The notes beneath the pieces are model-generated. The model worked only from the letters and a program-made list of their open reading frames with translations, was not told the DNA's origin and ran no database searches. A DNA stretch of 64,000 nt from an uncultured SAR86 cluster bacterium (lineage in GTDB: Bacteria > Pseudomonadota > Gammaproteobacteria > Magnimaribacterales > AG-339-G14), in NCBI GenBank assembly GCA_902625415.1, contig CACOBG010000003.1, positions 79,507-143,506 of the forward strand, written 5' to 3'. Of the stretch, positions 2,782 to 35,000 are shown one piece after another; position 1 is the first letter of the stretch; each line of letters starts with the position of its first letter. The translations under genes were made by a program, and so were the position numbers.

Positions 2782-4140
2782 ATGTTAAGTAAAGAACAAA
2801 AAAATTCTCCTGAAATTTTTTCTGTCTCTCAACTCAATAAAAACGCTAAGTTTACTCTTGAAAAAAAATTCAATGATGTTTGGGTAAAAGGAGAAATTTC
2901 TGAATTTACCAATTACCGTCAATCTGGACATTGGTACTTCACCTTAAAGGATGAGAATTCATCCATTAGTTGTGTGATGTTTAAATTTAAAAACTCATAT
3001 CTTAAAAATATTCCTGAAATCGGTGACGTGATAGTCCTCAAAGGAAAATTATCCTTATTTGAGGCTCAAGGTAGATATCAATTTATAGCAGAAAGCTTAG
3101 AGTATTCAGGTGAAGGAGATTTGTTAAAGGCTTTTGAAAATTTAAAAAATAAGCTTTTAAAAGAAGGTCTCTTCGATGAATCTTTTAAAAAAGAAATTCC
3201 TGAATTACCGATGCATATTGGTGTAGTAACTTCGCCATCAGGCGCCGTAATTCAAGATATTAGAAACGTATTGGAAAGAAGAGCGCCCTTATCAAAACTT
3301 ATTTTAGCCCCTTCTTTGGTGCAGGGAGACAAAGCAGAGAACGAAATAATAAATGCATTAAACATGCTTCGAGAATTTAATAAAACAGAAAAATTAGATC
3401 TAATAATAGTTGCTAGAGGCGGTGGCTCCCTAGAAGATCTTTGGTGCTTCAATAGCGAAAATATTGCAAGAGAGATTTATGCTCTTGAAATTCCTGTAAT
3501 AAGCGCGGTTGGTCACGAAACAGATTTTACAATTTGCGATTTAGTTTCTGACTTAAGGGCTCCAACTCCTTCAGCAGCAGCTGAAATAGCAAGCCAAGCT
3601 CACTCACAAATTGTTGATAAAATTAAGATTCTAGAAAAATCAATCTCAATATCAATAAAAAATTATCTCGAAACTAAAAATGAAAATTTTAGTGATACAT
3701 CCAATGTTCTAAAGAAGATTAATTTTAATCTAGATCAAAAGATTTTTAAAATTGATGAAAGCTTCAATAAAATTGTTTTTTTACAAAAGGATGGGTTTTC
3801 ATCTAAAAGGTTAAACCTCATAAAAAAAAGAACTTCTTTAAGAGATAGAAATCCACTCATAAAGCTTTCAAATCAAAAAGCAGATTTAAAGAGTAAAAAA
3901 TTAATTTTTAAAAATGTATTTAATAAAGTTCTTTTCAGCAAAAAAAATTCTTTTGATAGTTCTTCATCAAAATTACAAGCTTTTAGTCCTCTATCAGTTT
4001 TATCGAGGGGCTATACTGTTTCCACCAAAGATGGTGAGCTCTTGGATAACACGAAGTTAACTGAGGGAGATGAAATTCTCACTAGAACTGAACGAAATCT
4101 CATTCTTTCAGAAATAACTAAAATAGATGAAATTAAATAA
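2782..4140 (+). CDS. xseA: Exodeoxyribonuclease VII large subunit
   Basis: SVSQLN, SGHWYFTLKD, ARGGGSLEDLW, SAVGHETD, RAPTPSAAAE, SPLSVLSRGY. Confidence 0.96.
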   Translation: MLSKEQKNSPEIFSVSQLNKNAKFTLEKKFNDVWVKGEISEFTNYRQSGHWYFTLKDENSSISCVMFKFKNSYLKNIPEIGDVIVLKGKLSLFEAQGRYQFIAESLEYSGEGDLLKAFENLKNKLLKEGLFDESFKKEIPELPMHIGVVTSPSGAVIQDIRNVLERRAPLSKLILAPSLVQGDKAENEIINALNMLREFNKTEKLDLIIVARGGGSLEDLWCFNSENIAREIYALEIPVISAVGHETDFTICDLVSDLRAPTPSAAAEIASQAHSQIVDKIKILEKSISISIKNYLETKNENFSDTSNVLKKINFNLDQKIFKIDESFNKIVFLQKDGFSSKRLNLIKKRTSLRDRNPLIKLSNQKADLKSKKLIFKNVFNKVLFSKKNSFDSSSSKLQAFSPLSVLSRGYTVSTKDGELLDNTKLTEGDEILTRTERNLILSEITKIDEIK

Positions 4141-4921
4141 TTTTTTAATATTTTTTTTTCTGACTTTTTTATTTAGTTGTTCAAACTTCAAATTAGCTAA
4201 GGTAACTCCTTGTTCATTTCCAAATGAAACACTTGAAAAAGGAGGCCTGCTAAATAGATTTATTAGCAAAGAAAATCTAGACAATTCTTATAAAAAATAT
4301 ATCTGTAAAGACATTGCTGGTCATCGACTTGTATACCCCATTTCTTATTCTTCAAAAATGAAATTTACAATTATGGGAGAGACCATAATTCTTTCTGAAA
4401 AAGAATTCAGAGAATCTAGAATTATAATTAAAGATAATAAGTTCAATCAAATCTCTAATGAAAATCTAACAAGAATTAAGACCGAAAGAGAAATTTATGG
4501 AAGAAAGATATCTGTAAAATCAGTAAAAAAATATCAGGATACTAAGTTCAATTTCCCTGCTAAAGGGATAATTTCCAGTGAGTATGGAGTGAAACGTTTT
4601 ATAAATGGTTCCCCTAGAAATCCCCACTTAGGACTAGATATAGCGGCGGAAACTGGAACGTCAGTAGTCGCTCCAGAAAATGGCAAAGTTATTTTTGTTG
4701 GTGAATTTTTTTATAGAGGCAACCTAATAATCATTGACCATGGTAATGGCATTATCTCTACCTATTCCCATTTAAATGAAACTTTTGTTTCTGAAGGAGA
4801 TAATGTTCTTAAAAATTCTAAAATTGGAACAGTTGGTTCTTCTGGAAGAGTCACAGGGCCTCATCTCCACTTTGAAATTATTTTATTAGGAACAAAAGTA
4901 AATCCAATGCTATTTCTTTAA
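4127..4921 (+). CDS. M23 family metallopeptidase, probable lipoprotein
   Basis: Lipobox-like FLFSC; HLGLD (HxxxD), YSHL and TGPHLHF (HxH). Confidence 0.88.
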   Translation: MKLNNFLIFFFLTFLFSCSNFKLAKVTPCSFPNETLEKGGLLNRFISKENLDNSYKKYICKDIAGHRLVYPISYSSKMKFTIMGETIILSEKEFRESRIIIKDNKFNQISNENLTRIKTEREIYGRKISVKSVKKYQDTKFNFPAKGIISSEYGVKRFINGSPRNPHLGLDIAAETGTSVVAPENGKVIFVGEFFYRGNLIIIDHGNGIISTYSHLNETFVSEGDNVLKNSKIGTVGSSGRVTGPHLHFEIILLGTKVNPMLFL

Positions 4922-25489: not shown

Positions 25490-25566
25490 TGGTAGACACG
25501 CCCGGATTCGAACCGGGGACCCCTACCATGTCAAGGTAGTACTCTAACCAACTGAGCTACGTGTCT
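25490..25566 (-). tRNA. tRNA-Val(GAC)
   Basis: AGACACG/CGTGTCT acceptor, TAGCTCAGTTGGTTAGAG D-arm, CTACC-TTGACAT-GGTAG anticodon arm, GGTTCGAATCC T-arm, encoded CCA. Confidence 0.97.
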
Positions 25567-26825
25567 AAATTCGGAACGAATTCTAACACAGTCGCATTGA
25601 TACAATACCTTGGTTTGCCATTTGGACCGTCGTTGAATACGTGTCCTAAGTGAATGCCTGATGATTTAGATCTTATCTCAACACGAACCATGCCATAACT
25701 ATAATCCATATGTTCAGTTACAGAATCCTCAATCGCTTCAGTAAAAGAAAGCCACCCTGTTTTAGAATTAAATCTGTGTTTGGTATCAAAAAGCGGAGCT
25801 CCACTTAATTTGTCAACAAATACTCCTTCGGGAGTATTTTTAAATAATTCATATTCTTTGCAATACGTGGGATCTGTACCTTGATTAAACGCTACATTGT
25901 AAGCTTCAGTTTTGCCGAGTTTGAATTTCCCTAGAAGCTCATAAAATTTATCTTTAGCAAGGTATCCCTGGTGAGCAGAAATTTCTTTACCGTTTTCTAA
26001 AAAATAGATTGTTGGTGTAGCCCAGGTAGGAGTTTTTAAATCTAAGCCGTCTAATTCATTTGATGTTCGAAAAAATAACTCAATGGATCCTTTATAGCTA
26101 TTTAAGACTTCTTTTCTTAGTTTGAAGCAGTAAGGACAGCCTTCAGCATCAAGAATAAGTACTTTTTTGCCGGATGCTAAATTTTTATTATCTACAAAAT
26201 CCTCAGTTTCTTTAGAAAAAATAATGCCTGTTGAATTATCTGGACAATACCCATTAGGATTTTTTACTAAATAATCTTGGTGATAATCTTCTGCCAAATA
26301 AAAATTTGTATACTTTTTGATGTCTGTTGAAATTGGTCCGTAACCTTTTTTACTTAATAACTTCTGATAATTATCTCTAACTCCTTCAGAGATACTTATT
26401 TCGTCAATCGTATTAGCGAGAATCAAGGAGCGATATTGAGTCCCTATGTCGTTTCCTTGTCTGTTAATTTGGGTTGGGTCATGCATTTCAAAGAAAATCT
26501 TTACAAGACTTTCGAAGTCAGTTTGATTACTGTTATAAGTTACTCTAACTACTTCAGCAAAATTATTTGGGTTGAACCTATTTTCTCTTTTGATTATTTC
26601 TTTGTAAACAGGCTTAATATTTTTTCCATCAGCATAGCCTGACTCAACATTTACAACTCCGTAACTTTCCTGAAATTTTTTTTCAACACTCCAAAAACAA
26701 CCCGCTCCAAAAATGATTGTTTTCAGGTGATTTGTTGAGTTCTCCGCAAACAAGTTTGTATTTAAAAAAGAGATACAAAATAAACTAAAAATAAATTTAT
26801 AAGAAAATGATGATATTTTGTTCAT
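25557..26825 (-). CDS. msrAB: Exported methionine sulfoxide reductase fusion MsrA-thioredoxin-like-MsrB
   Basis: Signal peptide; GAGCFW, GNDIGTQYRS, AEDYHQ.Y (MsrA); CPYC...TPT (Trx-like); GWLSF, HLGHVF.DGP...RYCIN (MsrB). Confidence 0.92.
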   Translation of the reverse strand: MNKISSFSYKFIFSLFCISFLNTNLFAENSTNHLKTIIFGAGCFWSVEKKFQESYGVVNVESGYADGKNIKPVYKEIIKRENRFNPNNFAEVVRVTYNSNQTDFESLVKIFFEMHDPTQINRQGNDIGTQYRSLILANTIDEISISEGVRDNYQKLLSKKGYGPISTDIKKYTNFYLAEDYHQDYLVKNPNGYCPDNSTGIIFSKETEDFVDNKNLASGKKVLILDAEGCPYCFKLRKEVLNSYKGSIELFFRTSNELDGLDLKTPTWATPTIYFLENGKEISAHQGYLAKDKFYELLGKFKLGKTEAYNVAFNQGTDPTYCKEYELFKNTPEGVFVDKLSGAPLFDTKHRFNSKTGWLSFTEAIEDSVTEHMDYSYGMVRVEIRSKSSGIHLGHVFNDGPNGKPRYCINATVLEFVPNLDT

Positions 26826-26846
26826 ATATAAATATTATCCCATTAG

Positions 26847-27425
26847 ATGAAAATAATTCTTTTTATTGTTATAACCATAATAATTTTTTTTTCTTGGTTT
26901 TTTCTTGATACCACATCATCTTCGAATTCTCTCGAAACAACAAATAGTGCATACATTTCAGAGGAAGAGGCGTCTTCTAAAATAACCGATTTGACTTCTT
27001 TGAGCTCAAGAATATCAAAAAAAAATATCTATCTTAATCTAGAAGTTATTGATAGTAAGGAAAACTTCTCTCCAGTCAAAAATTTATTTGCATTCAAAAA
27101 AGTTACTAATTTTGAAGAATCTTTTATCGACATAATTCCTGGAGATATTCTAAATATAAATTTATTTGGAAATAATTTTCAAAAAGAAATTAAAACGGTT
27201 AATAAATCCAACTCAAATAAAATTATTAGAACAAAGTCGCTCGATAACGAAAATGAGTCTTTTTTGGTTATAGGTAACGAGCTAGCTTTTGGAAAGTTTC
27301 ATATCGATGGAAAAGTTTTTTTGCTTAACAAAAATGAAAACCTTACATATATTACAAATACTTCTGAAGCAGATTTAGAAATCCCTCAATTCAGTGAAGA
27401 AGATTATTCTTTAGAAAAGAAATAG
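26847..27425 (+). CDS. Membrane-anchored hypothetical protein, metalloprotease propeptide/chaperone-like
   Basis: N-terminal TM, Ser-rich linker, beta-rich domain GDILNINLF...FGKFHIDGKVFLL. Confidence 0.55.
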   Translation: MKIILFIVITIIIFFSWFFLDTTSSSNSLETTNSAYISEEEASSKITDLTSLSSRISKKNIYLNLEVIDSKENFSPVKNLFAFKKVTNFEESFIDIIPGDILNINLFGNNFQKEIKTVNKSNSNKIIRTKSLDNENESFLVIGNELAFGKFHIDGKVFLLNKNENLTYITNTSEADLEIPQFSEEDYSLEKK

Positions 27426-27430
27426 TTCGC

Positions 27431-30400
27431 TTAATCAGGTATGCCATCTGAATTGGAATCTACAGATGCAGTTGGATCTAATTTAAATGCATCGGAGTTG
27501 TCTAAAACTCCATCATTATCATCGTCATCGTCCAATTTATTATCTATTCCATCGCCATCGGAGTCTGTACTTTCCAATTTCCATATCCTTCCTAAGTGAT
27601 CGCGATACTGAATGATTCCCATCTCTGAATTTAACCAGAATACGGTATGCATTAAATATGGAGTGTCACTATATGGACTATTATTATTATCCCAGAGAGT
27701 AAAAACATATTTTATGGTGCTGAAACTTCCATAGGGAACGCTTATATTTTCACTTTTTATGAAGTGATTGAAATGAAAAACATCGTTATAAACGGGAGGG
27801 TCTCCATAGTGCGCATTACTGCAATCTCTTGCTAAATAATTTCCTATGCTTTGAAACGAATCGAAGAAAACACACAAATTGTTGTTGTTATAAAGAGTGT
27901 ATTCATCTTGATTGGAAAACTTATAACCTGCCTCGTAATCAGTTCGGTTTATAAAGTATTTATTATCCTTTTCATAAAAATGATAAGCCATCTTAGGATT
28001 TCCGTTAGAAGAATTTTCCCATTTAAAGCTTTTATAAATCTGACCGTTTATGTCGACATCGGAAAACTCAGTAACTTGGAAAATTCGTGTAGAACCAGCA
28101 TTTGAAAAAGTAGAATTGCCTCCTGAAATCTTTGGAAAGAAGTTTTTTATGTTGATTTTATTAGAAGTATTTGAATTGTCTAAGGAGCTAGCTGGCAGAA
28201 TACTAGAAAATCTTGTTCCTAAATTATTGTACCATTTGGTATTGTCGCTAACATTTACCACACCACAAGCTAGGCCGTTTTTACATGACACGTTTGGATT
28301 TGAAAAATAATCGGGTGAGATATTGTTGTAACTCATGACAGTTCCCCAGTCGAAACTATCTGTGAAGTCACCGTCGGTATTTCCATCAACACGATGACCA
28401 TAGGCATAAGACTGTCCAGTTTCTCCTGGCCAATGTCCTGATCCTAAATTGTGTCCTAATTCATGGGCAAAGACTTTATCAGGAAAACATGGATTACATC
28501 CTGGTTCTGACCAATTGGGATCAACGGACCATGCTGATAAGTATCCATGGGCTGCATCCCAATCGGTTAAATTATCTATTGTTAAATCAATTGAAGCTGT
28601 TCCTCCAGTCTGTCCTTTTGCTGAATCCCATCTTGAAACAAGAATAAAATAATCAGCTCCATACATGATTTGATCTTTTTTAATTTTTTCTCTACCAAGA
28701 AGAGAAGAAAAAATTGTATTCCCTGATTGGTTACTTACATCAACATCGTAAGGCAATAGTTTTAGTAAATTAAATTGAACCTCTGACTGACTCCTTTTTA
28801 GAGCATTGTTTGCAGATTCAATAAGATATAAAACTCTGGTCTCAACTCCATTTTCCGAGGTGTGTTCAGATAACATATCAGGAGCGTAATAAACCAGAAG
28901 ATCAACTTCATATAAAACATTGGAAATATTTATGACTAAATCTTTGCTGTCGGATAAAGCTCCATCATTCACTGAGACTGTCACTTCAAAAGAAGACTTG
29001 GTTTCATAATCTGGAGGATTTATAAAAGATAACTTACCTGAATTAGAAATACTAAAATAGGCAGAATCAGTTCCTGACAAACTGTAGCTAAGAGGATCAC
29101 CATCAGCATCACTGGCTACTATATCTACAACATTAATTTGATTTTCTGGAATTGTTATCTCAGTTGATGATATTGAAATGATTGGAGCATCAGGTAATGG
29201 TTGGACCGAGATATTTACAGATGCAGTGGAGCTTAAAGAGCCTTGTTCAAGAGTATATGAAAAGGAATCGTTACCATTGAAATTTGCATTTGGCTGATAA
29301 ACCAAAATATTCAAATTATCCTTGCTTATAGTTCCATTGGCAGGCTGTGTAAATGAAATGTTATAACTTGATTGACTATCATAATCATCGTTTTCCAAAA
29401 CGTTTATATTGAAAGTCTGATCTTCAAAAGAAGAAACCAAGTCAGAATTAGCTGTTATGGAAAAAGCTAAGTTTGATTCTGTTTGTCCAGATATCTCTGA
29501 AATGTAAGTAATTAAATCAAGACTGTATCTGGAATAAATATTTTCTTGATCATTATTGGATGCAACTAAAACAAGATCATTAAAAAAAGTATTGGTAGCA
29601 AAATAAAATAAACCATGTGTAGCTGCTAAGTTAGGCTTAACTTGTATCAAAGGTATGAAAGCTTTATACATATTTTTTACTTTCGTCTTAATTTCATTTT
29701 CCAAAGAAAGAGAAAATTTTAAATTTACATCGTCGACCAATGCATCTATGAAGGCCGAAGATTCTATATTTACCTCATTTTGAGAGCTTTGATAAATTTC
29801 TACCATTCGATCTAGGATTACTTGGAAAATTTCACTGCTATTGATGTCAGAAGTACTTAAATTATTGACTAATTTTGTAAAAGATAATGAAAGAGAGGTC
29901 AGTTGATTGGCTCTTTCATAGACCTCAGCATACATAAATCCATTATTCAAACTAGCTACATGATCAACAGTATTGACGTTTAAGTTTTGATCCAAGCCCA
30001 GAAGGTCATTTATGGTTGGTGTTATTGGGTTGGATAGTTTATTTAGAGATTCTGAAAGAAAAAAATCTGCTGTCGTTAATGGCGAAATAATAAAATTCTG
30101 AGCAGTATTAGAAGATGCAAGTTCATCTATCTTGTAATTAATTAAAATCAAACCTTCTAAACTATTGTTTGTATCTAAATCAATGCCGCCAGAGGACTGA
30201 ACTCTGTAGTCTGTTAGGCTTGTTGTTAAGCTAAATCTTCCTTGTAAGTTAGAAGACGTCTTTGTTTCTCCAATATTTGAAAAATCGTTTGTAGTTTCGA
30301 TCCAAATATCAGCATTTCTGATGTATCCATCTACTACCAGACCATTAATTGATTTTGGTTGACTCACGAAAGAACCTTCACTTGGAGGAGTGGCAGAGCT

Positions 30401-30469
30401 ATTACCTCCCCCACAAGAGGATAGGACTAAAGTAAAAAGAAGTATTTTTAAAAAACTTGAATCTAGCAT
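27431..30469 (-). CDS. Large lipoprotein: Ig-like and cadherin domains, reprolysin-like (M12) zinc metalloprotease, TSP3-like Ca-binding repeats
   Basis: LVLSSC lipobox; YQPNANFNGNDSFSY (Ig/Big_9-like); DADGDPL...PDYE (cadherin); HELGHNLGSGH at 28433-28465 plus Met-turn GTVMSY; DSDGDGIDN...DDDNDGV. Confidence 0.85.
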   Translation of the reverse strand: MLDSSFLKILLFTLVLSSCGGGNSSATPPSEGSFVSQPKSINGLVVDGYIRNADIWIETTNDFSNIGETKTSSNLQGRFSLTTSLTDYRVQSSGGIDLDTNNSLEGLILINYKIDELASSNTAQNFIISPLTTADFFLSESLNKLSNPITPTINDLLGLDQNLNVNTVDHVASLNNGFMYAEVYERANQLTSLSLSFTKLVNNLSTSDINSSEIFQVILDRMVEIYQSSQNEVNIESSAFIDALVDDVNLKFSLSLENEIKTKVKNMYKAFIPLIQVKPNLAATHGLFYFATNTFFNDLVLVASNNDQENIYSRYSLDLITYISEISGQTESNLAFSITANSDLVSSFEDQTFNINVLENDDYDSQSSYNISFTQPANGTISKDNLNILVYQPNANFNGNDSFSYTLEQGSLSSTASVNISVQPLPDAPIISISSTEITIPENQINVVDIVASDADGDPLSYSLSGTDSAYFSISNSGKLSFINPPDYETKSSFEVTVSVNDGALSDSKDLVINISNVLYEVDLLVYYAPDMLSEHTSENGVETRVLYLIESANNALKRSQSEVQFNLLKLLPYDVDVSNQSGNTIFSSLLGREKIKKDQIMYGADYFILVSRWDSAKGQTGGTASIDLTIDNLTDWDAAHGYLSAWSVDPNWSEPGCNPCFPDKVFAHELGHNLGSGHWPGETGQSYAYGHRVDGNTDGDFTDSFDWGTVMSYNNISPDYFSNPNVSCKNGLACGVVNVSDNTKWYNNLGTRFSSILPASSLDNSNTSNKINIKNFFPKISGGNSTFSNAGSTRIFQVTEFSDVDINGQIYKSFKWENSSNGNPKMAYHFYEKDNKYFINRTDYEAGYKFSNQDEYTLYNNNNLCVFFDSFQSIGNYLARDCSNAHYGDPPVYNDVFHFNHFIKSENISVPYGSFSTIKYVFTLWDNNNSPYSDTPYLMHTVFWLNSEMGIIQYRDHLGRIWKLESTDSDGDGIDNKLDDDDDNDGVLDNSDAFKLDPTASVDSNSDGIPD

Positions 30470-32555: not shown

Positions 32556-32761
32556 TAATTAAAGTATTTTTTTTTAAGAACTCTTACAAGAAAATAAATT
32601 GGAGAAATTATTAAAAAACAAATCAATAATTCAGCCCAAATGTTTAGTTGTGTGACGCTTCTTATGTAGCTTGCCGCGTATACGCTACCCAATCCCATAA
32701 AGCCATATATTATCCATAGAGATATGTCTATTTTCGAAATAACATTTTTAAAAAATTTCAT
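32555..32761 (-). CDS. Small two-TM membrane protein
   Basis: Two hydrophobic helices; ATGA and TAATG overlaps with neighbours. Confidence 0.6.
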   Translation of the reverse strand: MKFFKNVISKIDISLWIIYGFMGLGSVYAASYIRSVTQLNIWAELLICFLIISPIYFLVRVLKKKYFN

Positions 32762-33780
32762 TTTTTATAGTTTTTAATCCATGTTTCAATCAGTCTTATT
32801 CCTTCACTGTGTGCAAGTGTTCTCCCAGATTCAGGCATCATGATACCTGGATCTTGAGATTTCATTCGATATAACAATATAGATTTTTCTGGCTTACCTA
32901 GAACAATTGAATACATCAAGTTTCCACTCGCTCGACCAGCGGCTACTGGCGGTTTATTTACTCCGAGTTTTCTAATATCTTTTTCATGGACAGTTAAATA
33001 TAAACCGGTTGTGTCAGCTGAGCCTCCCGGCATATGGCAATGTCCACAATTCACATCTAGATAAGCTCTAGCCCTGTCATTTAATGATTCTTCAGTATTT
33101 TTCCAGTCAGCAACTACTTTTTGGGGATTGTGGTTTTCAACTAGACCATTTTCTATCCAATAATCAATTTGATTAATGCTTTCATTATGCTGAATTACCT
33201 CAAAGTTTAGATTTCTAGATTTTGGTCCTATCGGCATAATTTTGTCACCAGCTAAATGACATTCCTTACATTGGTTCTGATTTGGAACTCGATAATCTAC
33301 TTTTTTTAAGTTGCCCTCGTGAAGAAATTCAATTCCTTCAATAGTTTTTCCAGAGACCTTAAGAATTGCATCCTCCTGATTATCATCCCAAACATAAGTA
33401 TGAGCAGACCAACCTGTTTCCTGTAAAAGAAGTAATCTGGTTTCCAACAAAACTTTATTTTTGTTTGATGCCATCTCATAGGAGAAGGTTTTAACTAATG
33501 CCGACCCAATTGGAAACTCATAAACCCGATCAATAGAATGAATTGCTTTTTTTTCTTCAGGAATATAAACAAATCTGTCTTTTAAAGAGTAATCAGAAAA
33601 TAAGGGAGTTTGAAGAAAATATTTATGAACATTGTCATTGGGAATTTGCTCTTTAGGCGATTTAAAAAAATCATAGTCTGAAAGCTTAGCTTCGGGCTTT
33701 TTTGAGAGAATAGCTTCATCGTTTACGGCAAAAATTAATTGCGATAAGAGTGCAACTATTAAAAGAAGTTTTTTTACCAT
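32758..33780 (-). CDS. Exported diheme c-type cytochrome (SO2930/HNE_0200-like family)
   Basis: Signal peptide; PLFSDY..K.R, FP.G..LVKTF, ETRLL; two CxxCH (CKECH, CGHCH); MP..GR. Confidence 0.85.
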   Translation of the reverse strand: MVKKLLLIVALLSQLIFAVNDEAILSKKPEAKLSDYDFFKSPKEQIPNDNVHKYFLQTPLFSDYSLKDRFVYIPEEKKAIHSIDRVYEFPIGSALVKTFSYEMASNKNKVLLETRLLLLQETGWSAHTYVWDDNQEDAILKVSGKTIEGIEFLHEGNLKKVDYRVPNQNQCKECHLAGDKIMPIGPKSRNLNFEVIQHNESINQIDYWIENGLVENHNPQKVVADWKNTEESLNDRARAYLDVNCGHCHMPGGSADTTGLYLTVHEKDIRKLGVNKPPVAAGRASGNLMYSIVLGKPEKSILLYRMKSQDPGIMMPESGRTLAHSEGIRLIETWIKNYKK

Positions 33781-35000
33781 TCAGTAATTGGATCAAGGTT
33801 TTTTACTTCTGAGAAATAATCTTTTCCATTAAATTCTGGACTGTGAAAAAAAGACATCACAAAATACCAAAATAAATCAAGATTTAAGAACTTAGCATCA
33901 TTATTTGTATCAAGAACAAGTCTTTCTCCTTTTTTTTGACCGAAGACGTTTTGCCAAAATGGTAAAATACCATCCCACATAATATCTGGTTGAAAGCCAT
34001 TGGAGATTTCTACCAACAAAGGAGAAAGCTCTCCTCGGTTAAAATCTGGATCGTAACCTGAATTTTTAAAATAATTATCATAAATTTGAATATTTCTCGG
34101 ATAAGGATCGTAAGAATCGTCTCCAGACTCCAAATCTCCAGCAACTAAGGCAACACCGATTGTGGAATTATTTTCAAAAGTATTCTTAAAAACTTCTACA
34201 TGACGATTGGCTCTAATGACTAATCCAGTTCCTTTTGGTACTTGTCCGACAATGTTTCCTTCTGGAGCAAAATTTTCTGTATTGTTGTTGGATGAAATAT
34301 TTTTAAAAACTCTGACAAATTTTCCTCCTTGTTTAGGTAAATCTGGTAAATCAAAAACTAAAATTCCTGCAGTATTATTTTCAGCAACATTGTCATAAAC
34401 ATCGGCATAGTAAGAATTTTCAATTTCAATTCCAGCAACATTGAAATAAGCTTCAGTATTTCTAACTATAATATTTTCAGATTGTCCAACATATACCCCA
34501 GCATCAGATGCTCCAATAGCAATGCAACCATCAATTAGCACGTTCTTAGATTCGACAGGATAGAGACCATAAGCACCGTTTTTAGTATCTGGTCCATTTG
34601 TCCATTCGGTTCTAAGGTTTAAAAATTTGATGTTTTTTGAACCTTTGGATTTTATAGCATCTCCCTTAGCATTTTCCACGGCAAAATCTTTTAGAGTTAT
34701 ATTATTGGAAGTTACAAGAAGTCCTTGTGCACCAGTTTTTTGCTCTGAAAAGTTTAAGACAGTTTTTTTGTGGCCTTCACCTTTTAAAGTAATGTTATCG
34801 ACATCGAGAGATAAACCGTGGTTCAAATTATAGATTCCTGCCGCTAAAGAAATAGTGTCTCCTTCTTGAGCTAAAATCATTGCTGATTGGATGTCATCTT
34901 GTGCTGTATCACTCGGAGATATTTTCCATTCCTCTAAAAAAATAAATGAGGAAATAAATAAACAAGAAAGAATTGAAAACTTTTTAATTAAAAAACCCAT
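33774..35000 (-). CDS. Exported parallel beta-helix repeat protein (partner of the diheme cytochrome)
   Basis: NGAYGLYPV, GASDAGVYVGQS, NVAGIEIENS, NTAGILVFDLP, NFAP.GNIV. Confidence 0.85.
   Translation of the reverse strand: MGFLIKKFSILSCLFISSFIFLEEWKISPSDTAQDDIQSAMILAQEGDTISLAAGIYNLNHGLSLDVDNITLKGEGHKKTVLNFSEQKTGAQGLLVTSNNITLKDFAVENAKGDAIKSKGSKNIKFLNLRTEWTNGPDTKNGAYGLYPVESKNVLIDGCIAIGASDAGVYVGQSENIIVRNTEAYFNVAGIEIENSYYADVYDNVAENNTAGILVFDLPDLPKQGGKFVRVFKNISSNNNTENFAPEGNIVGQVPKGTGLVIRANRHVEVFKNTFENNSTIGVALVAGDLESGDDSYDPYPRNIQIYDNYFKNSGYDPDFNRGELSPLLVEISNGFQPDIMWDGILPFWQNVFGQKKGERLVLDTNNDAKFLNLDLFWYFVMSFFHSPEFNGKDYFSEVKNLDPITEW

Follow-up and report, generated by a model that had tools for sequence, protein, structure and literature searches.

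A 64,000-nucleotide stretch of an uncultured SAR86 cluster bacterium (assembly GCA_902625415.1, contig CACOBG010000003.1, positions 79,507 to 143,506 of the forward strand; hereafter the window) carries two convergent genes. One encodes a lipoprotein metzincin of 1012 amino acids (aa) without a prodomain (27431..30469, minus strand; assigned from its open reading frame (ORF), Pfam and NCBIfam), and the other a 192-aa protein (26847..27425, plus strand; assigned from its ORF, fold, profile and Atlas matches) that is predicted from its model to be a stand-alone M12B-type prodomain fold, similar to CpaB and BamI. By analogy with these known partners, the 192-aa protein is probably a membrane-tethered chaperone that acts in trans, folding the catalytic domain of the protease and likely blocking its active site until export. 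A sequence-only reading of the window had pointed to such a pair; both ORFs, and the gap of 5 base pairs (bp) between their convergent stop codons (27426..27430), lie exactly where it had placed them, and no terminator-like site was found in the gap. Both genes are single-copy in the 1.22 Mb assembly (34% GC), as judged by tblastn. The modest assembly size, the GC content, the marine sequencing runs in which the stretch occurs and the presence of a rhodopsin gene in relatives are in keeping with the SAR86 group.

The 192-aa protein resembles CpaB and M12B prodomains

The N-terminus of the 192-aa protein is hydrophobic, with a mean hydropathy of 2.7 over 19 residues. Its AlphaFold model (19 sequences; predicted local distance difference test, pLDDT, 77) consists of a helix at residues 2-23 (26850..26915), a low-confidence linker at residues 23-44 and a strand-rich domain at residues about 45-180 (26979..27386), the last delimited from the model, Foldseek, structure comparison and dN/dS (the ratio of nonsynonymous to synonymous substitution rates). 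The helix has no lipobox and, by comparison with CpaB, is the predicted inner-membrane anchor; the linker, taken as residues 24-44 in coordinates (26916..26978), is rich in Ser, Thr and Glu. This is the layout of transmembrane anchor, linker and beta-rich domain that had been read from the sequence, and the motifs quoted for it then lie at residues 99-108, 137-160 and 167-169. The protein ends in the tail PQFSEEDYSLEKK (27384..27422).

No noteworthy Pfam or NCBIfam match was found for the 192-aa protein. Comparison of its model with 48,161 structural chains placed 6o38_G first (Z 10.3, root-mean-square deviation 4.2, 119 residues aligned). This chain of 128 residues belongs to the CpaA-CpaB complex, and we take it to be CpaB from the entry title and the chain length; chain A of 6O38 is annotated as CpaA. 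Behind it come five rows at Z 6.0-6.5, which correspond to N-terminal parts of MPII, ADAM17 (three rows) and profragilysin-3; all six leading rows are thus metzincin entries, and unrelated folds begin at Z 4.7. Because a Z under 8 can, with this tool, reflect a common arrangement, we place weight on the top match and on the six metzincin rows together. The top six Foldseek rows are likewise 6o38 chains (best E 1.4e-3). The structural check against CpaB and M12B propeptides that the sequence-only reading had proposed thus puts CpaB at the top. In the Atlas, 18 of 30 matches are clusters carrying PF27177 (BamI_lipocalin) with scores of 0.92-0.95; these are language-model look-alikes, with the family on 15-68% of cluster members, and serve as a lead only. 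PF27177 was not listed by the Pfam scan for the 192-aa protein, nor for two other split partners.

A prodomain profile was built from the 200 residues ahead of the catalytic start in 79 proteins (78 loci fetched by the catalytic domain alone). It matches 16 of 19 small-protein rows at E <= 0.05 (Z=1000, best 4.6e-5), missing two rows from the sister genus and P0108, and of the 1495 ORFs in the genome it scores the small protein best (E 0.011; next 0.52). Profile-profile alignment (hhalign) of the prodomain with the small-protein family gives a probability (P) of 89.5% and E 2e-6 over 96 columns, and the C-terminal DY of the small protein aligns with the D that ends fused prodomains. The claimed resemblance to a prodomain stands above chance: 0 of 1900 shuffled sequences reach 12.1 bits (best 11.3), and the reversed alignment gives P 0.2%. 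A single plasmid-borne fused prodomain from Xanthomonas, set against the small-protein alignment, was a failed match (P 0.2%), so that the signal requires a deep profile. All 28 representatives of the small-protein family are 193 aa or shorter, and no fused form of this family was found among 7994 longer candidates, which is weak evidence given the narrow profile.

The protease has no room for a propeptide

In the 1012-aa protein (all features on the minus strand), the Pfam reprolysin match starts at residue 521/522, about 10 residues past the end of a cadherin-like domain (residues 437-511; 28937..29161; Pfam). The catalytic domain begins directly past the cadherin domain, so there is no room for a propeptide, and the fused-prodomain profile finds no match to the protease. 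Pfam and profiles therefore agree with the earlier description of a catalytic domain lying directly behind the cadherin domain without a propeptide. The catalytic domain (residues 521 to about 760; 28190..28909; Pfam, NCBIfam and profiles) contains EVDLLVYY at residues 521-528, the zinc motif HELGHNLGSGH at residues 669-679 (28433-28465) and the Met-turn Met712 (28334-28336) in GTVMSY. Reprolysin_3, _4 and _5 score 34, 34.8 and 30.9 bits against Pfam cut-offs of 22.4, 22 and 27. The zinc motif is conserved in all 14 loci of the genus; its four catalytic positions and both Gly residues are invariant in 57 rows, and Met712, identified by sequence alone, is kept in at least 90% of them. The 1012-aa protein is accordingly classed, from its motifs and domain matches, as a predicted reprolysin/M12B-like metzincin with predicted zinc-dependent proteolysis. 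The best NCBIfam match for residues 522-771 is Mep72 (NF052434; E 9e-18, 64 bits against a cut-off of 645), and the best match of the catalytic-family profile in the PDB is CpaA (E 4.8e-11); the catalytic domain alone as a query matched no PDB sequence.

The remaining parts of the protease were delimited as follows. The lipoprotein signal peptide (30413..30469) ends in LSSC with Cys19, followed by GGGNSS. Residues 30-335 (29465..30382) match no Pfam family; a confident model of residues 30-340 (pLDDT 90) shows a transthyretin-like beta-sandwich with helices (best Z 8.2). A prodomain hidden in residues 30-335 was considered and rejected, as the fold is unrelated and P against the prodomain profile is 0.3%, the helical part being barely tested. 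A Big_9 bacterial immunoglobulin (Ig) domain follows at residues 340-420 (29210..29452; Pfam). Past the catalytic domain, residues 775-965 (27575..28147) form a conserved domain, common to the sister-genus protease, for which no Pfam family was matched. The Asp-rich tail (27434..27574; DSDGDG...DDDDND...), with a weak NCBIfam match at residues 965-997 (E 0.27), is presumably thrombospondin type-3-like and probably calcium-binding.

The two genes co-occur and stay adjacent

Among 266 genomes of the order, the small gene occurs in 19, and exactly these 19 also encode the catalytic domain, always in an adjacent gene, which bears out the co-occurrence that the sequence-only reading had suggested looking for. 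The catalytic profile matches 20 genomes, these 19 and G145, which was dropped from the comparison: its 24-residue match lies in a different protein with no prodomain-like neighbour within 3 kb. A small-protein hit in G023 (E 0.003) was rejected as chance, there being no protease nearby and the signal being gone with an alignment search. In G005 a contig edge cuts off the protease after residue 541, which makes this genome uninformative. The catalytic profile was made without the sister-genus proteases and nevertheless detects them (E 5e-4 to 1e-3); the five genomes concerned are those with the small gene.

Within the genus the pair is convergent in 14 of 14 loci (drawn from 13 other genomes), flanked by msrAB and a flavin monooxygenase gene, with 3-5 bp between the stop codons or a 4-bp overlap; one of these loci is in a genome frameshifted in many genes (G007) and another is cut by a contig end (G002). 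In the window, the protease gene is the last of a co-directional run and lies 15 bp past the monooxygenase gene. The sister genus has the pair at a different locus, adjacent and co-directional in 5 of 5 loci: a 216-aa homologue (24% identity) starts immediately behind the stop codon of a 1154-aa lipoprotein metzincin (TAAATG). The small gene of one sister-genus genome (G066) is in two pieces.

Two features of the sister-genus protease (L035:10064-13525, minus strand, P0123) were seen in passing. Its zinc motif is HEIGHTMCAAH, with Cys replacing the usual Gly, and it has a long acidic helical stalk instead of Ig and cadherin domains. A rhodopsin gene (L035:6503-7201) is found about 2 kb away from the sister-genus pair, which has a LysR regulator and a TonB-dependent receptor beside it. 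In the window itself, a beta-helix gene and a cytochrome c-like gene at 32758-35000 occur in some congeners and are missing from others (L021, L022, L029, L030, L031 and L034 are examples of the variation).

The tail is the best-kept part of the small protein

The C-terminal tail is a candidate active-site plug, and its Asp186 (codon 27402-27404) a candidate zinc ligand. Of 121 close homologues, 120 retain Asp186, as do all 12 family rows; among 35 other prodomain rows, 21 have an Asp aligned with it, and several of the remainder have Cys nearby. Cys residues near the place of Asp186 occur in both split and fused prodomains elsewhere, for example PRCGSC (L081) and the PECA/APCG rows. The tail of the sister-genus partner, DHPPHIHNH, offers possible zinc ligands, as the Cys tails do elsewhere, and could be a His or Asp switch.

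Summed dN/dS of the small protein is 0.19 for residues 43-192 against 0.86 for the poorly conserved residues 1-42; in the protease it is 0.08 for the catalytic domain and 0.07 for residues 775-1012. These values cover 11 sequences (10 for msrAB), with dS near saturation and saturated pairs excluded.

Some database homologues of the small protein look recombinant (P0119). Across 25557-27425 of the window, msrAB is 74-78% and the small gene 45-79% identical to most congeners, the flanks being mostly 85-99% identical, which suggests that msrAB and the small gene form a recombining, faster-changing block.

Fused and split prodomains in distant relatives

Among relatives the fused form prevails. 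A prodomain match is found in 79 of 85 catalytic ORFs, a circular count because the same ORFs had supplied the profile; of 13 catalytic ORFs in an independent sample of the class, 9 have a fused prodomain. Split pairs were found as well. In a member of the Puniceicoccales (L081), an anchored prodomain (4021-4785) lies upstream of a protease of about 1900 aa without a prodomain, and the partner ends in PRCGSC, likely a cysteine switch. At L164 a Mep72-like protease has its split partner on the downstream side. In L067 the prodomain profile detects no prodomain, whether fused or in a neighbouring gene. The two ORFs at the contig end in L172 are probably one broken fused gene and were left out of the split count. 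Two Nitrospira loci were noted separately: there a protease with a fused prodomain is followed directly downstream by an additional stand-alone prodomain-like gene (L077:5734-6243 and L132:5765-6262) ending in TLPPD.

Transcription of the pair

The small gene lies on the strand opposite to both neighbours and must therefore be transcribed separately. Its ATG is 21 bp from that of the divergent msrAB, and with so short a distance any small-gene promoter overlaps the msrAB start. The separate transcription unit assumed by the sequence-only reading is thus forced by orientation; as for a promoter of its own, the scan is at chance (28 sites against 28.3 +/- 5.8 expected). Independent tuning of protease activity, also proposed in that reading, is possible but unsupported, with the promoter scan at chance and the sister genus coupling both genes. 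The abutting, co-directional pair of the sister genus also means that the system can do without the convergent layout. RNA contigs from 4 of 24 runs cover parts of both genes, and come without strand, start, level or a control for DNA carry-over.

Between msrAB and the small gene, a glycosyltransferase-like gene is intact in 7 of the 14 genus loci, in pieces in 2, absent from 4 and unjudgeable in 1. It belongs to group 1/GT4 (family tested for one locus) and is absent from the window at 26825-26847. A TTACAAT motif, which may be a -10 element, stands about 20 bases upstream of the ATG in 8 of 10 aligned relatives and is absent from the window.

Comparison with CpaA-CpaB, Mep72-BamI and cis prodomains

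CpaB has an N-terminal helix anchor, binds CpaA 1:1 in the periplasm and blocks the catalytic site with its C-terminal tail (PMC7542363). CpaA secretion requires CpaB, whose gene lies 22 bp downstream of cpaA (PMC4713064). BamI is listed as a candidate chaperone with a transmembrane helix at residues 5-24 (Table 1 of PMC4713064); it is co-transcribed with mep72, binds Mep72 and relieves Mep72 toxicity (PMC4334185). Fragilysin is silenced by Asp194 of the linker past its prodomain (PMC9514063), and lipoproteins can be moved to the surface by type II systems (PMC12802150).

CpaA-CpaB of Acinetobacter (PDB 6O38), the analogy drawn in the sequence-only reading, is the closest known system. As here, a reprolysin-like domain stands behind other domains in a protease without a prodomain, an adjacent gene encodes an N-terminally anchored partner of common fold (Z 10.3), and the genome has a type II secretin. 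The anatomy of CpaB, with its N-terminal anchor, periplasmic domain and C-terminal tail, is predicted for the 192-aa protein too, in keeping with the membrane-anchored partner that had been described. The order of cpaA and cpaB resembles the sister-genus layout; the genes of the present genus are instead convergent, and their host is a small-genome marine bacterium. Unlike CpaA, which has four N-terminal glycan-binding domains, the protease here has none such and is a lipoprotein with transthyretin-like, helical, Big_9 and cadherin domains and an uncharacterised C-terminal domain; the NCBIfam model for CpaA (NF033511) gave no row at E <= 1 for it.

Mep72-BamI of Pseudomonas aeruginosa (PA2783-PA2782) is a second precedent, which the sequence-only reading had overlooked. 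The catalytic domain is similar to Mep72 over the N-terminal half of that model, and the partner resembles BamI_lipocalin clusters in the Atlas. However, only model positions 2-245 of 573 are covered, no carbohydrate-binding modules were found here, and the two genes face each other, whereas bamI and mep72 share one transcript. By cut-off or architecture, the pair is an orthologue of neither CpaA-CpaB nor Mep72-BamI. The cis prodomains of profragilysin-3 and MPII of Bacteroides fragilis, of ADAM17 and of fused bacterial reprolysin-like zymogens share the fold (Z 6.0-6.5), the profile match and an acidic residue past the globular part (compare Asp194 of fragilysin). Here, in contrast, the prodomain is a separate, membrane-tethered chain, so release would need no cleavage.

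A type II secretion system is predicted in the genome, judged from gspD and a gspE-like gene. The gene for the type II secretin, gspD, scores above cut-off; the adjacent gspE-like gene (G000:C4:16634-17971) covers model positions 3-388 and 423-485 in one frame, an internal stretch being apparently missing.

A model for the pair and its alternatives

The precedents of CpaB, BamI and fragilysin, together with the type II secretin gene and its gspE-like neighbour, lead us to propose a tethered periplasmic chaperone. The small protein would be held in the inner membrane by its N-terminal helix, and the lipidated protease, made in the periplasm, would bind it through the catalytic domain. The tail PQFSEEDY would enter the active-site cleft, where Asp186 probably ligates the zinc, an aspartate switch in trans. 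The type II system would then carry the protease to the cell surface and leave the tethered partner behind, so that activation would come from separation and not from propeptide cleavage. At the surface, held out on a stalk of Ig and cadherin domains, the enzyme would digest proteins of the seawater or of particles.

Several observations weigh against this model. The co-occurring genomes are kin, all belonging to one family and to two of its genera, and incomplete genomes are numerous; because of that kinship, the co-occurrence amounts to about two independent observations. The small-protein profile (A1) itself includes rows from both genera. Foldseek E never reaches 0.001, identity to CpaB is 8-12%, and a sequence search of the PDB with the prodomain profile recovers no CpaB chain. 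For the two rows from the sister genus, the match to the prodomain profile is at E 0.85 and 3.7, and at only P 2.7% when their own profile is used. In G004 the small protein is 65% identical and the catalytic domain 97%, which is loose for a tight interface. The gspE-like gene is under its cut-off (563 against 630 bits). A review says that CpaB binding leaves CpaA activity unblocked (PMC9952577), and inhibition is for this reason less certain than chaperoning.

One alternative is that the small protein is a pure secretion chaperone, which would bind and fold the protease without inhibiting it. The need of CpaA for CpaB and the review's statement on unblocked activity would fit, as does the much greater change tolerated by the small protein than by the nearly constant catalytic domain; however, its best-kept part is precisely the tail with Asp186, related tails offer Cys or His as possible zinc ligands (PRCGSC, PECA/APCG, DHPPHIHNH), and the CpaB tail is described as sitting in the CpaA site, which makes this reading unlikely. 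It is quite improbable that the partner serves for self-protection only, with a protease that folds alone, a partner that catches active enzyme in the periplasm or near the membrane, and separate transcription to set activity. BamI is indeed described as an inhibitor relieving Mep72 toxicity, and in 14 of 14 genus loci the two genes are transcribed separately. Yet the fold is that of prodomains and of CpaB, the latter reported as needed for secretion, while the sister genus couples both genes and no regulatory signal rises above chance.

Very improbable, in our view, is a small gene that is a relic, or an unrelated membrane protein, linked to the protease by position only. Kin share loci, the signals at the sequence level are weak, and a fused prodomain from a plasmid, taken singly, was unmatched; the Nitrospira loci, where an additional stand-alone copy accompanies a protease with a fused prodomain, show that stand-alone prodomain genes can exist where they are seemingly unnecessary. 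Against this stand purifying selection (dN/dS 0.19), an adjacency that survives a change of locus and orientation, and the position of the genome's best prodomain-like ORF 5 bp from the only reprolysin domain found there. The trans-acting tethered chaperone thus remains our preferred explanation.

As a tentative possibility, CpaB, BamI and the small protein might all be one thing: an ADAM/fragilysin-type prodomain, detached and tethered to the inner membrane, whose tail supplies an Asp, Cys or His as a zinc ligand in trans, with export pulling the enzyme off a reusable prodomain. An inversion in the genus would have put the genes tail to tail (3-5 bp, with no terminator found), so that the balance between enzyme and plug could be adjusted through transcripts that overlap or through separate promoters. 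If true, this would be a control impossible for a one-chain zymogen. We found no paper that calls CpaB or BamI a detached prodomain, in a search that did not extend to the primary CpaA-CpaB papers, which may discuss a prodomain origin; nor was anything relevant found on this protease in SAR86, most subscription papers lying outside the search.

Implications

The principle of the pair is already known from CpaA-CpaB and Mep72-BamI; the points of difference here are the lipid-anchored protease, the streamlined marine lineage and the separate, tail-to-tail transcription units. The chaperone-protease arrangement, studied in two opportunistic pathogens, is thereby extended to an ocean bacterium with a streamlined genome (1.22 Mb assembly). 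By fold and by profile, CpaB/BamI-like proteins are linked to the prodomains found fused in bacterial reprolysins, in fragilysin and in ADAM17, and the two natural layouts, coupled and convergent, let the role of co-transcription be examined. As the only reprolysin-type domain found in the genome, and one under purifying selection, the protease points to a part for surface proteolysis in the feeding of this lineage.

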